Assembly: GCA_008369845.1 (NCBI GenBank)
Contig: MRSU01006640.1
Span: 1 to 39,092 of the forward strand
Direction: 5' to 3'
DNA length: 39,092 bases
Origin: Trichomonas gallinae
Lineage: Eukaryota
Below, piece after piece: positions 10,765-38,578 of this stretch (position 1 is its first letter; every line of letters starts with the position of its first letter). Both the position numbers and the translations under genes were made by a program. The notes under the pieces were generated by a model. The model worked only from the letters and a program-made list of their open reading frames with translations. It had not been told where the DNA came from and did no database searches.

Positions 10765-11592
10765 GAAATTTGAGCTTTTAATTCGATTTTATGATTATTT
10801 ACGCTTAGCAGACTTTAAACATTTTGTTTTTTCGATCAAAGAATTCGCGATCAATAACGTGCTAATTTCAAAACTCAAAATTTAGGCTCTTAATCATTAA
10901 TAATGCTATATACATTAGCATTATAGTATATATTTAATAGCAAAATTAAAAATTAGCAAACAAGAGAAAGATCTTTTCACAATCAACTCATTATCAATTT
11001 TAAGAATAAATCATATGTATATTTGGATATTTTATGTAGTAGATGATAGCATTATTAAAGTTTCCTCTATCATTCGAATGTTGTTCAATATTGTTAACAA
11101 AACTTGAGTAATAAGCAGTCACCTCGCCATATAAGTATTTATATAGAAAACTAACTATAGCATGTGTTATTTCACATAGTAGTTTTTAATGTTATTTATG
11201 TGTTATAGCATTAATAATATAATAATTTTATTTGGGCTGTGATTTCAGCAACAAGCGTTTAATATTGACTATATCATATACCATCATAAACTTCATGAAG
11301 AAATAATATGAGTTTCCTGTAACATCTTTTGGAAATATCCATCACACAAAGATTTTCCTGCATGATGAATTTTCCTCAAACGCACTTCAAGCATTAAGTT
11401 CAGTACAGAGAAAAGCTTTGAATATCGATGTTAATAGTTTTATAACAATATTTTTATAACATCATTAGAAAGAGAAAGAAAGAAAATGATTTTCTAATTT
11501 ACATGTCAGATATGTTTTGTGATGTCAAAAAATGATTTTTGAAATTTACGTGTCAGATATATTTAGTAATGTTAAAAATTTTGTCAATTTTT

Positions 11593-23792: not shown

Positions 23793-24939
23793 ATAGTAAA
23801 TTTACCTACAGCGAAATTTAATAAGGTAAGGACACCTTTTTATTATTACGATACTGATTCACTACGTCAAACATTGTCACTGGTTAAGTATGAACTCTCT
23901 AAGTACAAAAATTACAAAATGCATTATGCGATGAAAGCGAATTTCAACAAAAAACTACTAAATATTATCAAAGACTACGGATTTGGCCTTGACTGTGTTA
24001 CTGGATGGGAGATCGAAGCAGGAATTAAAGCTGGTTTCGATCCAAAAAATTTTGTTTTCGCAGGAGTTGGGAAAACAGACGATGAGATCGAGTACGCCAT
24101 AGAAAACGACATATTTTGTTTCAACGTCGAATCTCTGCAAGAAATCGAAGTTATTAATCAAATTGCAGAAAAGAAAGAGAAAACAGCGAGAATTGCCATA
24201 AGAGTCAATCCAAATATAAGCACTCATACGCATGCGCACATACAAACAGGATTATCAGAAAATAAATTTGGAATTCCTCTTAGAGACTTAGATACAGCAA
24301 TATCAATGGTTCAGTCATCAAAAAATCTTGAATTCAACGGTTTTCACTTCCATATTGGATCACAAATCCTTGATTTAACAGATTTTAAAAATTTATCAAA
24401 TTTCGTCGAAAAATTGTTAGAAACTTATAAAAACAAAGGCATTACTATTAAAAATATCAATGTTGGAGGTGGATTAGGCGTAGATTACTCAAATCAAAGC
24501 AAATTCCCTGATTTTGAAAATTATTTCAAAGTTTTTGCAAATATTTCGCCATTAGTTGATGCAGTTCACTTCGAATTAGGCAGGTCAATCATAAACTAAT
24601 GTGGAAACCTCGTCACAAGACTTCTATACACGATACAAGGAGAAACAAGAAACTTTGCGATTGTCGACGGAGGAATGACTGAGCTGATTCGTCCTGCTTT
24701 ATATGGCGCACAGTACATCATAGAGAATATCAGCAGAAATGATCCTAAACAAGTTTTCGATGTTGTTGGACCTGTTTGATGAATCTACTGATGTAATTAA
24801 AAGAGATGTGAAATTAACTGGAGCAAAAAGAGGAGATTTTATAGTAATAAGATGTGCAGGAGCTTATGGAGAGTCAATGGCATCAAACTATTTATGCAGA
24901 AATCTTCCCATAGGATATATTACTGAAGATTTCAAATAG
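23793..24939 (+). pseudogene. lysA: Diaminopimelate decarboxylase (bacterial-type LysA) pseudogene
   Basis: Motifs TPFYYYD, YAMKAN (PLP Lys), HFHIGSQ, NVGGGLG, HFELGRS, LIRPALY, GAYG. Lesions: ATA at the expected start (23793), in-frame TAA at 24597-24599, and a +1 insertion at GPV-C-ES (TGA at 24777-24779). Confidence 0.92.
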
Positions 24940-27416: not shown

Positions 27417-27620
27417 ATTTTTGATAAAAATTATAATCGCTCACTAGTTTGATGAAATGAATACAAAATATTCAATGTTTATAATCTGTATTATATATTC
27501 TTTTGATATTAATCAATAAAAAACTATTTTTGATAAAAATTATAATTATTCAATAATATGATGATTTGAATACAAAATATAGAATGGATAGGCTTTGTAT
27601 TATAAATATTTCTAATATTT
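27417..27620. repeat. Diverged about 109-bp direct duplication
   Basis: TTTTTGATAAAAATTATAAT..TGATGA..TGAATACAAAATAT..AATG..TGTATTATA occurs twice (TGATAAAAA at 27422 and 27531). Confidence 0.7.
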
Positions 27621-30581: not shown

Positions 30582-30719
30582 AAGTTTCACCCCTTAAATT
30601 TTTCACCCCCTAAATTTATTTCAATTTCAATGAAATTGCAGGGGGAGACGACCATGTATATTTAAATGTTGAATATTCTACAAGAATAACGAATATATAG
30701 GATTTAGCTTTACTCATGC

Positions 30720-30902
30720 AATTAGGGCGTATAGTATACTATCATGTTTACTTTTAGGTTAGTTCAGTTCTCATCACCTTAGCTAATACGCGCTGAAAAT
30801 TAAACTGGTGAATTTTTGACCAATGACAGATTTTGAAGAGGCAAGAAAATACCCTTAATATTTTTATTAACGAGGGGCTGACACGCCTATAACCCCCTAA
30901 TT
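30720..30902. mobile_element. Candidate MITE-like element (imperfect terminal inverted repeats)
   Basis: AATTAGGGCGTATAG (30720-30734) is an imperfect inverted repeat of CTATAACCCCCTAATT (30887-30902). Confidence 0.3.
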
Positions 30903-31763: not shown

Positions 31764-32509
31764 ATTGTTTTGTTACTGTTTGATATCAAACCAACACGTT
31801 TTTTTGTTTTGGTCGGGAATCAAAAATTGTAGAATGCCGTCATTCTCATTAATACCTCGCACATATACAAGGAAAGAGATGCGATAATAGCGAAAAATCA
31901 CATTTATATTTAGATTCGAAATTACAAATTAATTTTGCAATTGCGCAGATACCCATGGTCATTATTTATGTAATCTATGCCATGGTAATATGAAGGAGAG
32001 TAAAATATACTCGTTATTACGCGCCGCGGTTATTTTTGTTTTCAAACAAAAAATCAATTTGATCAGATTATATTTACAGACATTATCTTCATGCTACAAG
32101 GGGTTTATATATAGATATAATATCTCTTTTTCAAAAAAATCAATATTTAGAGAAAAATGTTTGGTCTTCTTAAGAAGATTATATGTTCAAATAATGGTAA
32201 AAAAATTTCACACTACATCTACCTACATCTTATTGAAATTAATGGCGATTATTCCGCTTTTTCTATGTGTTCGAGACGGAATTGAAAGCTTATTGAAATA
32301 TATCAGTACATTATATATATAGACAATGTTTTAGTTGTTTATATTTTTCAATGAGTTTTTCGATTTTTGAATGTTTACAATTTTCAATGAGAATTCCTAA
32401 GTTTTTTTTAATTGATTTATGTTGTCTGTAAGATGTGTAGCAAACATTCACGATTTTTTACGATATTAAAATTGAATGAGATTTTTTGAATCATTATTTT
32501 CAAGTTTGT

Positions 32510-32854
32510 ATGTCAATGAGTCTCCTGAATCAAATCATCAGCGAGAGTCAGAGCAGTAGCGGAACATGGTCATACACGTTCATGTTTGAGGTCAGAAACA
32601 TGATGAAAAAGCTACATCAGAAAGATAAAATGAAAGTTTTCTCCGGTTTATTTGACGTTATACTGCAGGATCCAGTCTCTGAACTACAGCAATTCAAGAT
32701 CTGCCAGCTGATTTGCTACATCTACAACAGCTATCCAGAAATCTTTAAGGATTCTCTCAACACTTACAAAGTATCCGCAGAAAAAGCTTCCCACACAAAG
32801 AAGGTTGACTCCGAGCTATCCAGAGCTTCTTTCAACCTCATCAAAAATTTATAA
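32510..32854 (+). CDS. Small hypothetical helical protein
   Basis: About 114 aa with coding-like GC and codon usage; ATG at 32510 or 32516. Confidence 0.65.
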   Translation: MSMSLLNQIISESQSSSGTWSYTFMFEVRNMMKKLHQKDKMKVFSGLFDVILQDPVSELQQFKICQLICYIYNSYPEIFKDSLNTYKVSAEKASHTKKVDSELSRASFNLIKNL

Positions 32855-33390
32855 CGAAGAAAATTCTATACAGTCTTATTTTGTGCGGTATTATATTGTA
32901 TTGTTTGTATAAAGTTGTGTATATATATTCTTTCATTCGAGTCTTTTTGTCGAACTTCAAATCATTTCATTTGATATTATATTTTAACTGGAATTCACAG
33001 ATTTTTAACTTTGTTCTCTGCAAATGTGCAAATAACTCAAACGATTCTCACCATTTAAAATAAGCAACTCTCAAAATAATTTGGGAAAAAATTATTAAAC
33101 CGAAAGTAACTGCAAGGTTGCTACATAAATAGAAAACACATCGGTATTAATGAATTCCTAACAGAAGTTTTCTCATATCTATACCACACATATCGAAATA
33201 AAAATTTCGAATTTTCCCTTTTCTTATCAAAAAAAAAAGAAAAAATCTATACGAGGTGAGAGAAGAATAAACATCATTGTGCCAGAAACCTTTAAATAAT
33301 TGGCACGTCAAAATGATATTTTTTTTCTTCACAGATTATATTGAAATATATATTATCTTATGGTGTGTTATATGAAAAAACTAAAAAAGA

Positions 33391-33967
33391 ACGACTGGGT
33401 GCCCAAAGGGTACTTATTGACTTATATTAATCTATAAGTTCCTCTGAGCGTTGGGTGGAACGGGTCACAAGTTGCCCTATGGCTTGGTCATCCCCTATCC
33501 AATTCGCAAACGCATTTCTGCGTAAACTTATTTAACCCTCCAGTCCGCCCTAAGAGCATGAGCAGTCGGTCCTACCGCAAAGGCTTGTTGAGGGCCTTTA
33601 GACCTATTACAAGACACCGGTCACCCTGATGTCTGGGTCGCGCACATCAGTTTCCAAAAAAATAAGTCGCAATTTTTGTAAAGACAAAAATTCGCAATGT
33701 TCTACGTCCGGATGCCTTCGTTAGAAGACACCTGTTAAGGAGAGAACTACACAATCGCAAACAGAGGCAAAACTGCACTGATGGACTAGATCAGGAACGG
33801 ACCTCGTTTGAACGATCGATCACCAATACTACAGTCTGCAAAAGGTTGAAACCTTTTTATAGCCATCATGGAACCGCACATATCAAAAAATTGAATATGT
33901 TTGAGGAACCAGTGGGGCTAAATTCTTATCAGCTAACATTAATAGCATCAATTAAGAATCCAGTCGT
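33391..33967 (+). ncRNA. Large structured non-coding RNA candidate, family unknown (may extend to about 34097)
   Basis: GC-enriched, with no credible ORF. Terminal helix ACGACTGG(33391-98)/CCAGTCGT(33960-67) encloses more than 12 nested helices; non-WC pairs are G-U on the + strand. Confidence 0.65.
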
Positions 33968-34107
33968 AATAACAAAACAGCTGTTCATACCATCGACAAA
34001 AAAGATCTTTCGAAATTTTTGTCTGCTGGCGATTGGCCTGGAAACTATGGATAAACCGACAGTCCCCTCGGGTCGTTGGACGATCCTTAATTGGGTAAAG
34101 TCAAAGT

Positions 34108-34845
34108 TTAAATAATAAAATCTGCGAAAACTTGATTAAGATCATCCGTTTGTGTAGTATACTGATAATCATCGACACTATATGTATCATATGTCTCATA
34201 ATCATCTACAACTAACGGATCAAGAATATCACTAGGAGGCATTGCGTCAGGGACTATTTGTGGTCTAACTTCAGTATGCTTTTCACTAGAAGCTAGACAC
34301 TTCTTAGTTTGTGCTTTCTCAACTCCAATGAAATCATTGATGATTTCGCAGAATTTTGGACCAGGTTCAAACTGGCTTATTACCGATGAAGGATCTTCCT
34401 TTATCGTGTCTGCATTCGAGAGGAGCTGCTCAATTTGTGTGATATGTAATGCTAAAAATATTCCAATATTTGGATGTGTTAGAGTTGATTTGTATTTCTC
34501 CCAATTCTTGTAGATGAACATCACGAACTTGCGATTAAGGAGTAATGTGTCTAATTGGGAAAAATGCAAGCAAAACCATTTGAAAAATGTATCATGAATA
34601 ATTAATTCTTTGAGTTGTGGCCAGATGTCGGCGAGATATGAAAGCATTCCCTTCCTTGTTCGCCAATCATAGCGAACAGTTGGAATATTGAATTCTTGTG
34701 ATGACATTCTCACTAATAAATACAAGAAATCTCTTCTTAAGTGTTTGGAGAATTTGCGAAGATATTTCTTCATAGGCTCAACAACGTGAGAGTTTTTCTC
34801 TAGCTTTTCATTGACAAAGGCTCGCGCTTTCGCTTCTTTGTTCAT
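34108..34845 (-). CDS. Hypothetical protein (basic helical N-terminal domain, acidic tail)
   Basis: 245-aa ATG ORF; basic segment KKYLRKFSKHLRR...YDWRTRKGMLSYLADIW; Asp/Tyr/Thr-rich C-terminus. Confidence 0.8.
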   Translation of the reverse strand: MNKEAKARAFVNEKLEKNSHVVEPMKKYLRKFSKHLRRDFLYLLVRMSSQEFNIPTVRYDWRTRKGMLSYLADIWPQLKELIIHDTFFKWFCLHFSQLDTLLLNRKFVMFIYKNWEKYKSTLTHPNIGIFLALHITQIEQLLSNADTIKEDPSSVISQFEPGPKFCEIINDFIGVEKAQTKKCLASSEKHTEVRPQIVPDAMPPSDILDPLVVDDYETYDTYSVDDYQYTTQTDDLNQVFADFII

Positions 34846-35487
34846 CGCTTAGTTTTAAAATATAAAAGTCGGTTTTTGTAAATCAAAATTTTTTAAAAAT
34901 TGAGAGGGACAAAAAATTCGCATTCAAAAATTCGGTTTGACACTTACTCGTTTCATCATTTTAAGCATTATTGTAAAATTTTGTATTTAAAAGTGACAGA
35001 TATATAAAAGTGACAAATCATCAACATTTTTTTACCAACATTTTTTGATTCTTTATGATTTTTATTACAAAAAACAAATATTCAGCGTCATATGTCAAGG
35101 AAAACACAAACGAATCGTTCTATATTTATTAAAAATTATTATCAAAAAATTGTTAATGAGTTTTAGATAAAATTAAATATACCAATATATTATCTACGTT
35201 TTAAGAAATTTATCCATCTATTGAAAAGCTCCAAATCTGATTTATTATTTTTTCAAAAATATTAAAGATATTGTTTTAGTTTGTTTGAGACAGAATAGAT
35301 TGTACTGTATGCAGTCATTTTATATTTTAATGGAAATTAACAAACAGCTATTTTTTTTTTTCAATTTCGATTTTGTATCTGGTTGTTAGAGATTTTGTAT
35401 TACATAATTAGTATTTTTAGAAAACAAAAGAACAAATTTTCATTCCACAAATGAAAACTATTAATATTTTCCGCATAAATTTTAAGC

Positions 35488-36069: not shown

Positions 36070-36667
36070 AAAAATATAATATAAATTACCGATTTGCTTA
36101 TTTTCTGTTATTGATGTCCATTAGACAACATATTTTTCATATTTTTCTTGAATTTTGATTAGTCGCGATTTTTTGCCAATTCAGGAAAACCTGACAATAA
36201 AATTTGCCATTTGACATTTTCGTTTTACAATTGTAAAGCATTGAAACAAGACAAAATCACTTTTTAATTATTAATAATCAACATCTTGCCATTCAGCACT
36301 GTATATTGAAATTAAATAATCTTGTTTTTATTGTCTTTTTATTTTGTTTTCAAAAATCTAAGATTTGAATTAATAAAAAATATATTATAAATTAATGCAA
36401 TACAATTATTTATCATGATTTTTCAAAAAAATAATTTCAAGAAATAATACATTCAAAAATCTCAGTTATGAATTTCGGAAAATAATTTATAAAATAACGC
36501 AATCCATAGTATTATCATTGTATGTCAAAAAAAAAAAAAAAAAATAAAGCATTCAAAATTCTCAGTTTTGTATTTTCAAATAATTTGTTAAATATATCAG
36601 ATATATGCATTTAGACTAAAATATTTTTGAATTCCTCTGAAAAACATAAAAAAATTAAAAATTTATA

Positions 36668-38578
36668 ATGTTCGTTTTCCTTTTTGCTTCTTTTTCTTTC
36701 TCTGAGATTGTGACATGCTTTCATGATTACTATGAGCACAAGTCATTAAGAGAGAGAGAACCAGAGCCAATTCGAGTTTTGCAAGAAACAAATATTAATA
36801 ATGATACAAATATTACATCATTTGATGATCCCAGGGCCAAACCTTTTAAACTATTGTTCAAATATGGTAAAATAGATGCTATCGGTGAAAAAAAGGGAAT
36901 TATAGAAGATACTTTTAAATTTGTGCAAGATTTCCTCAATGACAGAATAAAATTGTATCCATCAGATGCTGGAGAACTTACCATCACAGTTGTGGCAATA
37001 TCTGACGAATTTAAAAAAAATCCTAATGGCCTTGCATATGCCTTTACAACAGGTACTTATCCTTCTGGCAGACCTAAGACAGGAGAAATCCATCTAAATA
37101 TTGACAAGCTCCCAGATGCAGCTCAAACCCTTTCTTCAGGAAACAGACAATTCATTATGACTGTAATTCACGAATTCAACCACATTTTATCATTTAGCAA
37201 GACCCATTTTGGAAAATATAAAGATGAGAATGGCAAACCTGCACTAAAATTCACAGACCAAGATGGTAATGTCATTCAAAATGCGGCTAAATTAGATGAT
37301 TTAAGCAGCTACGACATTGGACACATTTTCTTGAATACTCCAAGACTTACCAAATACGTGAACGAACACTTCCATGTTAAGAAACACACTAATTTGGGTC
37401 TTGAAATTGAAGATGGTGGCGGTAGTGGTACGGCCGAATCACATCCTAATGAAAGACTTTTCTTCACCGACCTTATGCAGGGCAGAACATACGGCCCAGG
37501 CTGGTTGAGTCCTATTTTCTATAACACACTTTGGGATACTGGTTGGTATATACCATCTCCAAATTTAATCGAAGAGTTTGTTTATCTTAACGATGAATTG
37601 AATCCTAAGATTGAGGTCACAGAAGATATTCTATTAAAGCCTCCACAGCATTCATTTCCACCTTCATATCTTTGCACATCAGAAGCTCTCAACGCCTGCT
37701 TCTATGATTACACATATACTGGTGTTTGCTCTCTGAAAAGCTGGACCGAGATTCAAAATGAAAAAAATGGTGAAAAATTTAAACAACACGAAAAATGGTA
37801 TAATCCAGATAATCAAAACAAAGTCGGATCAGATGATCTTCTTGATTTTGCAAACCTCGTTTTGCCATGGTATTCTTGCAGAGACATTGGACCAGGAGGT
37901 CTTAAAAGAAGAATAGACTTAGGAGATGACTATGATTCTAATAAATACGGCGAAATTTTCGGTCCAAACTCAACATGTGCTCTTTCAACGCTTCAAAAGG
38001 CTACAACAGGGGGTTTAATTGCCGAGCCAAAATGTTACGATGCATGGTGTGGCACAGATAGGAAAGTCAGGCTCATGGTTCCCAATGTATCGAAAGAATT
38101 TTTCTGTAAGAGAGACGGCCAGCAAGCGACATTCGAGGGCTATGCAGGCTCAATCACATGCCCACCTGCAGCGGTTGTTTGCGCAAATAGGGAACTTAGA
38201 GAAATTTTTGGTGTTGCAAATATATTCCCAGACAGAGGACCAATTGATGGCCAAAACTTCGTCGCCATTACTGGTAGTGACTTCCTTAAGTATCAACCTG
38301 AAGATGTTACTATTCGACTCGGTACTGTTAATTGCGATATCAAAATTTACAAGGACAACTACATCCTCTGTAAACTAGAATCAGTAGACGATAAAAGACA
38401 GGAAGAAATTCTTAAAGGATCATTCAAAGTCTTAAAAGGTGTATCAGACATTAATATATATAGACAGTTTGAAGCTAATATATCTTCAAACCCTCAAGCA
38501 AATACAGTGCTTCCAGACATGTATGTTTTCACAAACAGATGGTACACAACAGGCACGAAAAATAAAGAAAATAATTAA
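36668..38578 (+). CDS. GP63/leishmanolysin-like (M8) metalloprotease with C-terminal IPT/TIG-like domain
   Basis: Signal-like N-terminus, CFHD Cys-switch-like propeptide, HEFNH, EDGGGSGTAESH, DLM Met-turn, Cys-rich domain, IFPDRGPIDGQNFVAITGSDF. Confidence 0.9.
   Translation: MFVFLFASFSFSEIVTCFHDYYEHKSLREREPEPIRVLQETNINNDTNITSFDDPRAKPFKLLFKYGKIDAIGEKKGIIEDTFKFVQDFLNDRIKLYPSDAGELTITVVAISDEFKKNPNGLAYAFTTGTYPSGRPKTGEIHLNIDKLPDAAQTLSSGNRQFIMTVIHEFNHILSFSKTHFGKYKDENGKPALKFTDQDGNVIQNAAKLDDLSSYDIGHIFLNTPRLTKYVNEHFHVKKHTNLGLEIEDGGGSGTAESHPNERLFFTDLMQGRTYGPGWLSPIFYNTLWDTGWYIPSPNLIEEFVYLNDELNPKIEVTEDILLKPPQHSFPPSYLCTSEALNACFYDYTYTGVCSLKSWTEIQNEKNGEKFKQHEKWYNPDNQNKVGSDDLLDFANLVLPWYSCRDIGPGGLKRRIDLGDDYDSNKYGEIFGPNSTCALSTLQKATTGGLIAEPKCYDAWCGTDRKVRLMVPNVSKEFFCKRDGQQATFEGYAGSITCPPAAVVCANRELREIFGVANIFPDRGPIDGQNFVAITGSDFLKYQPEDVTIRLGTVNCDIKIYKDNYILCKLESVDDKRQEEILKGSFKVLKGVSDINIYRQFEANISSNPQANTVLPDMYVFTNRWYTTGTKNKENN

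Follow-up and report, generated by a model that had tools for sequence, protein, structure and literature searches.

An element that is non-coding, GC-rich, conserved in one relative, single-copy in the assembly of that relative and without a match in Rfam is found in a spacer of the window (i.e. the whole stretch of 39,092 nt of DNA that was analysed). The element is real and uncatalogued; the RNA that it probably specifies is read from the minus strand and measures about 700 nt, in place of the 577-nt plus-strand RNA proposed in the first-pass annotation. The interpretation put forward here, to which we give somewhat less than an even chance, is that positions 33383 to about 34090 would form a folded minus-strand RNA of about 700 nt, cut from a read-through transcript at the poly(A) site of the upstream gene and serving as the scaffold of an RNP. 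A protein scaffold is preferred over a guide because the predicted fold has many arms and little unpaired sequence, and neither a guide nor a template was found in it; nuclear RNA processing is our best guess for the task of the particle.

The window is eukaryotic DNA, AT-rich and densely packed with genes. The spacer holding the element measures 1253 bases and lies between a 114-aa open reading frame (ORF; 32510-32854, plus strand) and a 245-aa gene on the minus strand, with an EB1 gene and a Rab gene farther out. The 114-aa ORF, which is without a Pfam family and is covered by a contig of sequencing run X2 (9 differences in 410 bases), is probably a real gene. The product of the 245-aa gene is 48% identical to Trichomonas vaginalis TVAG_406860, 43% to TVAG_499040 and 97% to P0019; it matches no Pfam family, its matches in Atlas are weak leads only, and scans of related loci with this protein gave one weak bacterial match (27%, L012) and no viral match. 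The identities to the two T. vaginalis proteins place the source of the DNA among the trichomonads, but outside T. vaginalis. A short inverted repeat with 8-bp arms lies at 33278-33307, about 80 bases past the predicted 3' end of the element.

Several other features of the window were noted along the way. A high-copy interspersed repeat at 30656-30835, between the TBC and EB1 genes, is matched in run X1 by at most 36 contigs, with a summed depth above 30,000 and many loose ends, and is also present in X2; no second copy of it lies in the window. The TBC gene is on the minus strand, and its start codon is immediately preceded (30585-30617) by two tandem 16-mers with a C-run, possibly a promoter motif. 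A 226-aa ORF (23919-24599), presumably a truncated PLP-dependent decarboxylase as judged from its motifs and possibly a broken gene, is followed by a spacer, extending to 25861, with GC content up to 0.45. The gene at 36668-38578 encodes a leishmanolysin (peptidase M8) that carries an IPT/TIG domain at its C-terminus, and two-copy tandem repeats of 109, 102 and 47 bases are found at 27417-27619, 36377-36575 and 11483-11578, respectively.

The element stands out by its composition. The first-pass annotation had remarked on a GC content above that of the neighbouring spacers and, indeed, the most GC-rich 100 bases among all 19 spacers of the window are found in the spacer of the element (0.57, against at most 0.45 in the other 18). 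The whole element is 43% GC, with 0.44 in 33391-33967 and 0.54 in 34022-34090, right past the stop codon of the 245-aa gene, and the value falls to 0.27 past the 3' U6 runs. The earlier remark that the sequence fits no familiar snRNA, SRP, tRNA or rRNA signature was borne out by Rfam at the cut-offs and at E <=10: no family reached its gathering threshold anywhere in the window, and the 5 and 3 matches obtained at E <=10 all had E >=4, far under the cut-offs and at chance level. No tRNA or tRNA-like fold was seen in the element. A hidden coding frame was not found either, with at most 6 of the 12 changes in the relative being synonymous in any of the six frames. One plus-strand frame, in which four consecutive changes (33533-33623) are synonymous, was rejected: its ATG-initiated ORF has just 23 codons, and the frame has at most 6 synonymous changes out of 12. 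Blastn searches of phage and plasmid sequences with the element gave no match, no second copy was found within the window, and a pattern scan of metagenomes returned 11 loci, none of which extends past 18-19 bases.

Conservation was evaluated against a single relative, represented by one contig of run X1, the alignment of which spans 31785-35391 and contains 185 substitutions and 54 gap letters; runs X1 and X2 share alleles, so that X2 is not an independent relative. In 33391-34000, 12 of 610 positions differ, as compared with 173 of 2997 in the rest of the contig, a comparison set that includes two protein-coding genes (Fisher P 3e-5), and none of the 54 gap letters falls there. In the slightly longer interval 33336-34000, 14 substitutions and 2 gap letters (both at 33381-82) were counted; the positions of 13 of these substitutions are given, with 12 falling in 33391-34000, a count that would become 13 if the remaining one also fell there. 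Only one X1 contig lies on the element at >=80% likeness, which makes the element single-copy in that assembly. No two-sided compensatory change occurs among the 12 substitutions, as counted in one relative that is about 98% identical in the element. In X2, 3 substitutions and 7 gap letters fall somewhere in 34001-34049, and could hit the spine described below. Taken with the blank result in Rfam, the conservation in the relative supports the initial proposal of a functional structured RNA.

With respect to folding energy, the comparison with shuffled controls that the first-pass annotation had suggested shows a fold better than that of the shuffles: the 577-mer 33391-33967 has z -3.24 on the plus strand and -3.30 on the minus strand, with none of 100 shuffles as low on either. 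The two values are nearly equal, and energy does not, therefore, pick the strand. For the extended interval 33383-34090, the minus strand gave an MFE of -220.4 and z -4.3 (1 of 400 shuffles as low) and the plus strand z -2.4 (1 of 150 shuffles as low). The extended minus strand ranks first among the 58 window-strands tested (29 of about 55 windows), a position in which it is tied with the neighbouring coding window. Indeed, the coding part of the 245-aa gene at 34091-34798 (minus strand) folds 30 kcal/mol under its shuffles, level with the element and far past other coding windows (-30.1 and -30.2 for the coding window and the element, respectively, with 7 shuffles each), and the coding strand of this gene reaches z -3.35 in 200-nt windows. 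As a result of this tie, energy by itself does not mark the element out.

The strand was addressed through the substitutions of the relative. Each strand was folded from the window alone, and the summed pairing probability destroyed by the substitutions was compared with that lost when substitutions of the same types were placed at random, 20,000 times. On the plus strand, the strand that had originally been proposed, pairs are broken at the rate expected by chance, both in the 577-mer (4.97, expected 5.08+-1.17, P 0.46) and in 33383-34090 (4.97, expected 5.01, P 0.48); on the minus strand they are avoided (1.67, expected 4.31+-1.01, P 0.0036, and 0.62, expected 4.39+-1.16, P 0.0005, respectively). 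Four T>C changes cannot break minus-strand pairs, the minus-strand signal being that of the other 8, and three A>G changes are likewise silent on the plus strand. At the level of single sites, the T>C changes at 33846 and 33883 and the change at 33718 keep their minus-strand pairs as G-U, the change at 33696 turns a G-U into a G-C pair, and the substituted positions 33418 and 33433 lie opposite one another as a 1x1 loop within a long hairpin. Hairpins capped by GAAA and UAAC are further features of the minus strand, as is a U6 run past its last helix. A version of the test in which the MFE of the whole mutated sequence was computed was not significant (15/150), and a strand-neutral count of wobbles favours the minus strand by 11 to 4, as compared with a background of 59% in shuffles (P 0.19); it found 13 helices, as compared with 11 in the shuffles. 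The RNA very likely comes from the minus strand, since the changes in the relative spare the minus-strand fold and not the plus-strand fold.

The earlier model, in which the terminal helix 33391-98/33960-67 closes a 577-nt RNA of the plus strand, is very improbable. The helices on which it was built do exist: all 12 that were tested base by base are present, with the plus-strand G-U pairs attributed to them, and are nested; the z of -3.24 is favourable, and the terminal helix has a pairing probability (p) of 0.96 in the plus-strand 577-mer, or 0.65 with the extension. The GTTCT/AGAAC stem and the long hairpin 33860-920 were also recovered in computed folds, as was one of the two capped hairpins (33716-27), the other (33731-40) reaching p 0.44 at most. 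However, all 5 substituted sites that pair at p >0.5 on the plus strand (33433, 33605, 33718, 33846 and 33883) lose their pair in the relative. The size of about 580 nt, closed by the terminal helix, is probably wrong as well: the GC-rich sequence runs on past 33967 to 34090, as does the fold approximately, and an X2 contig crosses the junction 33967/33968, extending over 80 bases to either side of it. Once the extension is included, the terminal helix drops to p <=0.01 on the minus strand, and with it are lost CCTCTG/CAGAGG, ACTTATTT/AAATAAGT, GTGCCC/GGGTAC, TTGGGTGG/CTATCCAA and CTGATGT/ACATCAG. The helix 33419-40 is re-registered, and the local hairpins 33922-59, 33860-920, 33840-57, 33716-27, 33699-747, 33671-92, 33579-99 and 33510-23 are kept.

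In the minus-strand model (table 1), three nested long-range helices, A, B and C, take the place of the terminal helix, and the fold reaches about 120 bases past 33967; the 3' partner of the old terminal helix on this strand now closes the 3' domain 33545-33393. On neither strand of 32860-34215 (1356 nt) was a helix found that is stronger than helix A (-20.3 kcal/mol), and helices A and B were predicted at p >=0.94 in all three other contexts in which the sequence was folded. An energy control of the 5' extension gave a gain of -7.4, as compared with -4.4+-3.6 for shuffled extensions, 37 of 200 of which gain as much. On balance, we consider it fairly likely that the modelled fold extends to about 34090.

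Table 1. Predicted features of the minus-strand element and of the gene upstream of it. Positions are those of the window; p, pairing probability.
Feature	Positions	Strand	Remarks
Candidate host transcript (245-aa gene)	34108..34845	-	directly upstream of the element, same strand
Predicted poly(A) site of the 245-aa gene	34089..34110	-	UAAA overlapping the stop codon; AAUU 14 nt on, 34092-89
Predicted large structured non-coding RNA, ~690-710 nt	33383..34090	-	both ends predicted; MFE, conservation, pair-breaking test
5' hairpin	34073..34083	-	directly past predicted cleavage site; p 0.79, 0.45 in wider context
5' spine strand, GC-rich	34022..34060	-	three successive segments pair with distant segments, nested order C, B, A; no variant positions available here
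Multi-hairpin domain inside helix A	33767..34021	-	hairpins 33960-21, 33920-860, 33857-40, 33839-767; weak AT-rich hairpins 34021-33966
Helix A, 3' arm	33752..33765	-	pairs with 34035-34022; 13/14 positions pair, 1 G-U; p 0.87-1.0
Two branches between A and B	33667..33747	-	three-way stem with 9-bp UAAC-capped hairpin (33732-33711), hairpin 33697-33667; p 0.83-0.99
A-U7-G stretch, putative Sm-like site	33655..33666	-	mostly single-stranded; 33666-33658 unpaired at >0.7
Helix B, 3' arm	33648..33658	-	pairs with 34047-34037; 11 bp, 3 G-U; p 0.91-1.0
Two branches between B and C	33578..33639	-	33639-33601 and 33600-33578; p 0.88-0.91; rival pairing of 33622-33601 in relative
Helix C, 3' arm	33565..33572	-	pairs with 34060-34053; 8 bp (+2), 2 G-U; p 0.84, 0.35 in widest context
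3' domain, 153 nt	33393..33545	-	closed by 33545-40/33398-93; p 0.92-0.97
Two U6 runs, predicted 3' end	33375..33388	-	directly past last helix; changes in relative lie between the runs

Within the 3' domain, a GAAA-capped hairpin (33523-10) and an irregular 49-nt hairpin (33449-33401) are predicted, and the fold of its interior (33540-33453) differs between the window and the relative. Near-identical repeats are present at 33499-33510, 33689-33697 and 33752-33761, so that the 5' arm of helix A could also pair near 33505; this second site may represent an alternative conformation. Single-stranded stretches are few on the minus strand, and the longest ones include the A-U7-G run between two helices, which resembles an Sm site. 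Three A-U5-7-G occurrences are found on the minus strand where 0.7 are expected; as candidate Sm sites, that at 33663 is predicted to be largely unpaired, and the other two would sit inside hairpins. The pentamers UUGCG and GACUG occur 5 times each on the minus strand, where 0.5 and 0.4 are expected from the rest of the window, an excess that is overstated, since the background is more AT-rich and the two were chosen after having been seen.

Transcription of the element is hinted at by run X2, which is taken for RNA by automatic guess. Eight X2 contigs lie in the window, four of them on coding genes, three on a repeat and one inside the element (33879-34049, depth 2.18); none joins the 245-aa gene to the element, and gaps in the cover of X2 prove nothing. 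Two further runs, X3 and X4, gave no aligned contig, which does not bear on expression. The element might also be a feature of the DNA alone, either the remains of a mobile or viral insertion bearing inverted repeats or a spacer that is GC-rich by chance, and give rise to no functional RNA. Helix A would be, in this case, a near-perfect 14-bp inverted repeat, the neighbouring coding window folds as well as the element, and the element may not be transcribed. However, the element is single-copy in the relative and conserved above its surroundings, the strand-asymmetric tolerance of changes is unlike that of DNA repeats, and phage and plasmid matches are nil, so that a DNA-level origin has, in our estimate, a slim chance.

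How a minus-strand RNA might be produced at this locus is suggested by its close neighbourhood with the 245-aa gene. About 20 nt separate the stop codon of this gene from the first hairpin, which leaves no space for a separate upstream promoter, and Inr, A-box and B-box patterns were absent from the minus strand of 33383-34107. A promoter within the last codons of the 245-aa gene is possible by analogy with the U6 gene of T. vaginalis, the promoter of which works within 131 bases upstream (PMC5762654). Internal U-runs of the minus strand (U6 at 34003, U6 at 33890 and U7 at 33662) argue against Pol III, in keeping with the first-pass annotation, which had doubted such an origin for its plus-strand RNA. 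The succession of UAAA and, 14 nt later, AAUU at the predicted poly(A) site is consistent with the rule for T. vaginalis, in which cleavage takes place 11-30 nt past the signal (PMC13515687). The U-rich downstream element of T. vaginalis poly(A) sites is absent, its place being taken by a GC-rich hairpin, and a loose poly(A) pattern matched 9 of the 20 gene ends in the window.

Release of the RNA by cleavage would be the simplest route, although each of its steps is one that we infer. Pol II would read on beyond the 245-aa gene, and cleavage about 14 nt past the UAAA would set free a new 5' end; the 5' hairpin and the spine would then block 5'-3' decay, the U6 tail may be held by La or Lsm-type proteins, as for U6 snRNA (PMC6619189), and the unpaired U-rich stretches and the repeated pentamers would bring in proteins.

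The explanation that ranks next after the scaffold RNA, and which we regard as unlikely, is that the element acts in cis as a structured 3' extension of the mRNA of the 245-aa gene, that is, a long alternative 3' UTR tuning stability, localisation or translation when the proximal poly(A) site is skipped. The element adjoins this gene on the same strand, the proximal site is weak and without the U-rich downstream element, the coding part also folds strongly, and tandem alternative polyadenylation has been reported in T. vaginalis (PMC13515687). However, no UAAA is found in the 30 nt ahead of the U6 end, the first 45 nt at each of the 19 remaining gene ends of the window look AT-rich, and the single T. 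vaginalis 3' UTR measured, in the portion of that report available to us, is 55-56 nt long (PMC13515687). The lack of an X2 contig joining gene and element points in the same direction, with the above proviso on gaps in cover.

If the scaffold RNA is, instead, released as proposed, a parallel with respect to the route is offered by mascRNA, a stable RNA cut from the longer Pol II transcript MALAT1. Both would be structured downstream cleavage products that evade decay; unlike mascRNA, however, the element would be cut by the poly(A) machinery, and its product would be about 700 nt long and without a tRNA-like fold. Like U6 snRNA (PMC6619189, PMC5762654), the RNA would end in a stem and a run of uridines, a candidate site for La or the Lsm ring, but the element is far longer, has internal U6-U7 runs and no A- or B-box patterns, which speaks against Pol III, and does not match U6 in Rfam. 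The intergenic lncRNAs of T. vaginalis are, like the element, intergenic and non-coding, and they come from the same lineage (PMC4223856). They are described as having an average GC content of 30.5% and as being expressed independently of their neighbours, and the term 'secondary structure' does not appear in the text of that paper (PMC4223856), whereas the element is 43% GC, conserved and folded.

In a further explanation, the element would belong to a known class (U17/snR30-like, SRP, U3, or large Sm snRNAs of the yeast U1 kind), but as a member so diverged or expanded that covariance models miss it. The size class is right, A-U5-7-G is found in excess, the 3' end is oligo(U), and trichomonad RNAs are far from those of model eukaryotes (PMC3268645); even so, this is quite improbable. 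None of these families appears in Rfam at E <=10, nor do the U1, U2, U4, U5, U11 and U12 models. Among the exact motifs sought, U17 m1 and m2, SRP helix 8, box C and those of RNase P/MRP are absent from the minus strand; CUGA is internal only, and the 3' end is oligo(U), not ACA, unlike that of snoRNAs. SRP helix 8 with a GNRA loop was found on neither strand, and no SRP match was given by Rfam. The RNAs of RNase P and of MRP in T. vaginalis resemble the element as structured, conserved, housekeeping-type trichomonad RNAs, but the element is about three times longer (P and MRP have 251 and 222 nt, respectively; PMC3228867) and lacks CR-I and CR-V, which form the P4 pseudoknot, on the minus strand, as well as a match in Rfam. 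On the plus strand, a CR-V-like stretch (33907-33921) and a CR-I-like stretch (34058-34067), judged by the MRP patterns, could pair, but their order is reversed and the strand is unsupported; the CR-I-like 10-mer at 34058, with 1 mismatch, is at chance level (0.78 expected) and lies after the CR-V-like stretch. Other look-alikes were set aside as having no support in Rfam: two stretches, near 33836 and near 33790, that recall the P7 strands of group I introns, one near 33645 that recalls a group II 5' end, snippets of U2 and U12, and a look-alike of SRP helix 8 near 34041.

Telomerase RNA deserves separate mention. Fungal telomerase RNAs of the TLC1/TER1 type are large, single-copy and multi-arm RNAs, likely made by Pol II, with an Sm-like site and a U-rich 3' end. 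The element recalls them in these features and in its long-range core helices, but differs from them in that no template for three known repeats is present on the supported strand, no triple-helix-type pseudoknot was seen in 33391-33967, and the Sm-like site is internal. Indeed, a template of one repeat plus alignment region was found on the minus strand for none of TTAGGG (7- or 8-nt), TAGGG and TTTAGGG, which makes a telomerase RNA unlikely, although the repeat of the host itself may differ. A single TTAGGG-type 7-mer occurs on the plus strand (33533-39), and the relative alters both of its end bases; the sole C-rich candidate predicted to be single-stranded (33594-87, repeat TTGAGGG) lies in a hairpin loop, and its alignment region is 1 nt long. 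A scan of 33391-33967 for H-type pseudoknots gave 9 candidates (3 on the plus and 6 on the minus strand), none with the telomerase layout of a U-rich first and an A-rich last loop. On the other hand, the parabasalid repeat was given as unknown in 2013 (PMC3622300) and is not named in the available parts of PMC13735942 and PMC12289875, the telomerase RNA of Giardia is stated to be still unknown (PMC10999387), and the oxymonad repeat is TTAGGG (PMC6759080). We thus assign a small likelihood to a parabasalid telomerase RNA templating an unusual repeat; if true, it would fill a gap, since no metamonad telomerase RNA was found described in the literature searched.

The preferred reading remains that of a scaffold RNA of an RNP. 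Large, conserved, single-copy structured RNAs are few in eukaryotes, and the known ones run core machines: telomerase, RNase P/MRP, SRP, 7SK and U3. None of these fits the element, which would, therefore, belong to a new particle or to a barely recognisable parabasalid form of a known one. It is conceivable, though rather unlikely in our judgement, that the element stands for a class of large RNP RNAs new to eukaryotes, about 700 nt long, with a one-sided spine of nested long-range helices, promoterless and freed from an mRNA end by poly(A) cleavage; a description of such an RNA was not found in the mainly open-access literature searched. If so, a stable RNA would be released by poly(A) cleavage, an event by which the fragment downstream is normally condemned to decay. 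The folded RNA that the element likely makes would add a large RNA to those of a little-studied branch of the eukaryotes. It is also an accessible one: since T. vaginalis has a relative of the upstream gene (TVAG_406860), published genomes give access to the corresponding spacer, and knockouts are possible in that species.
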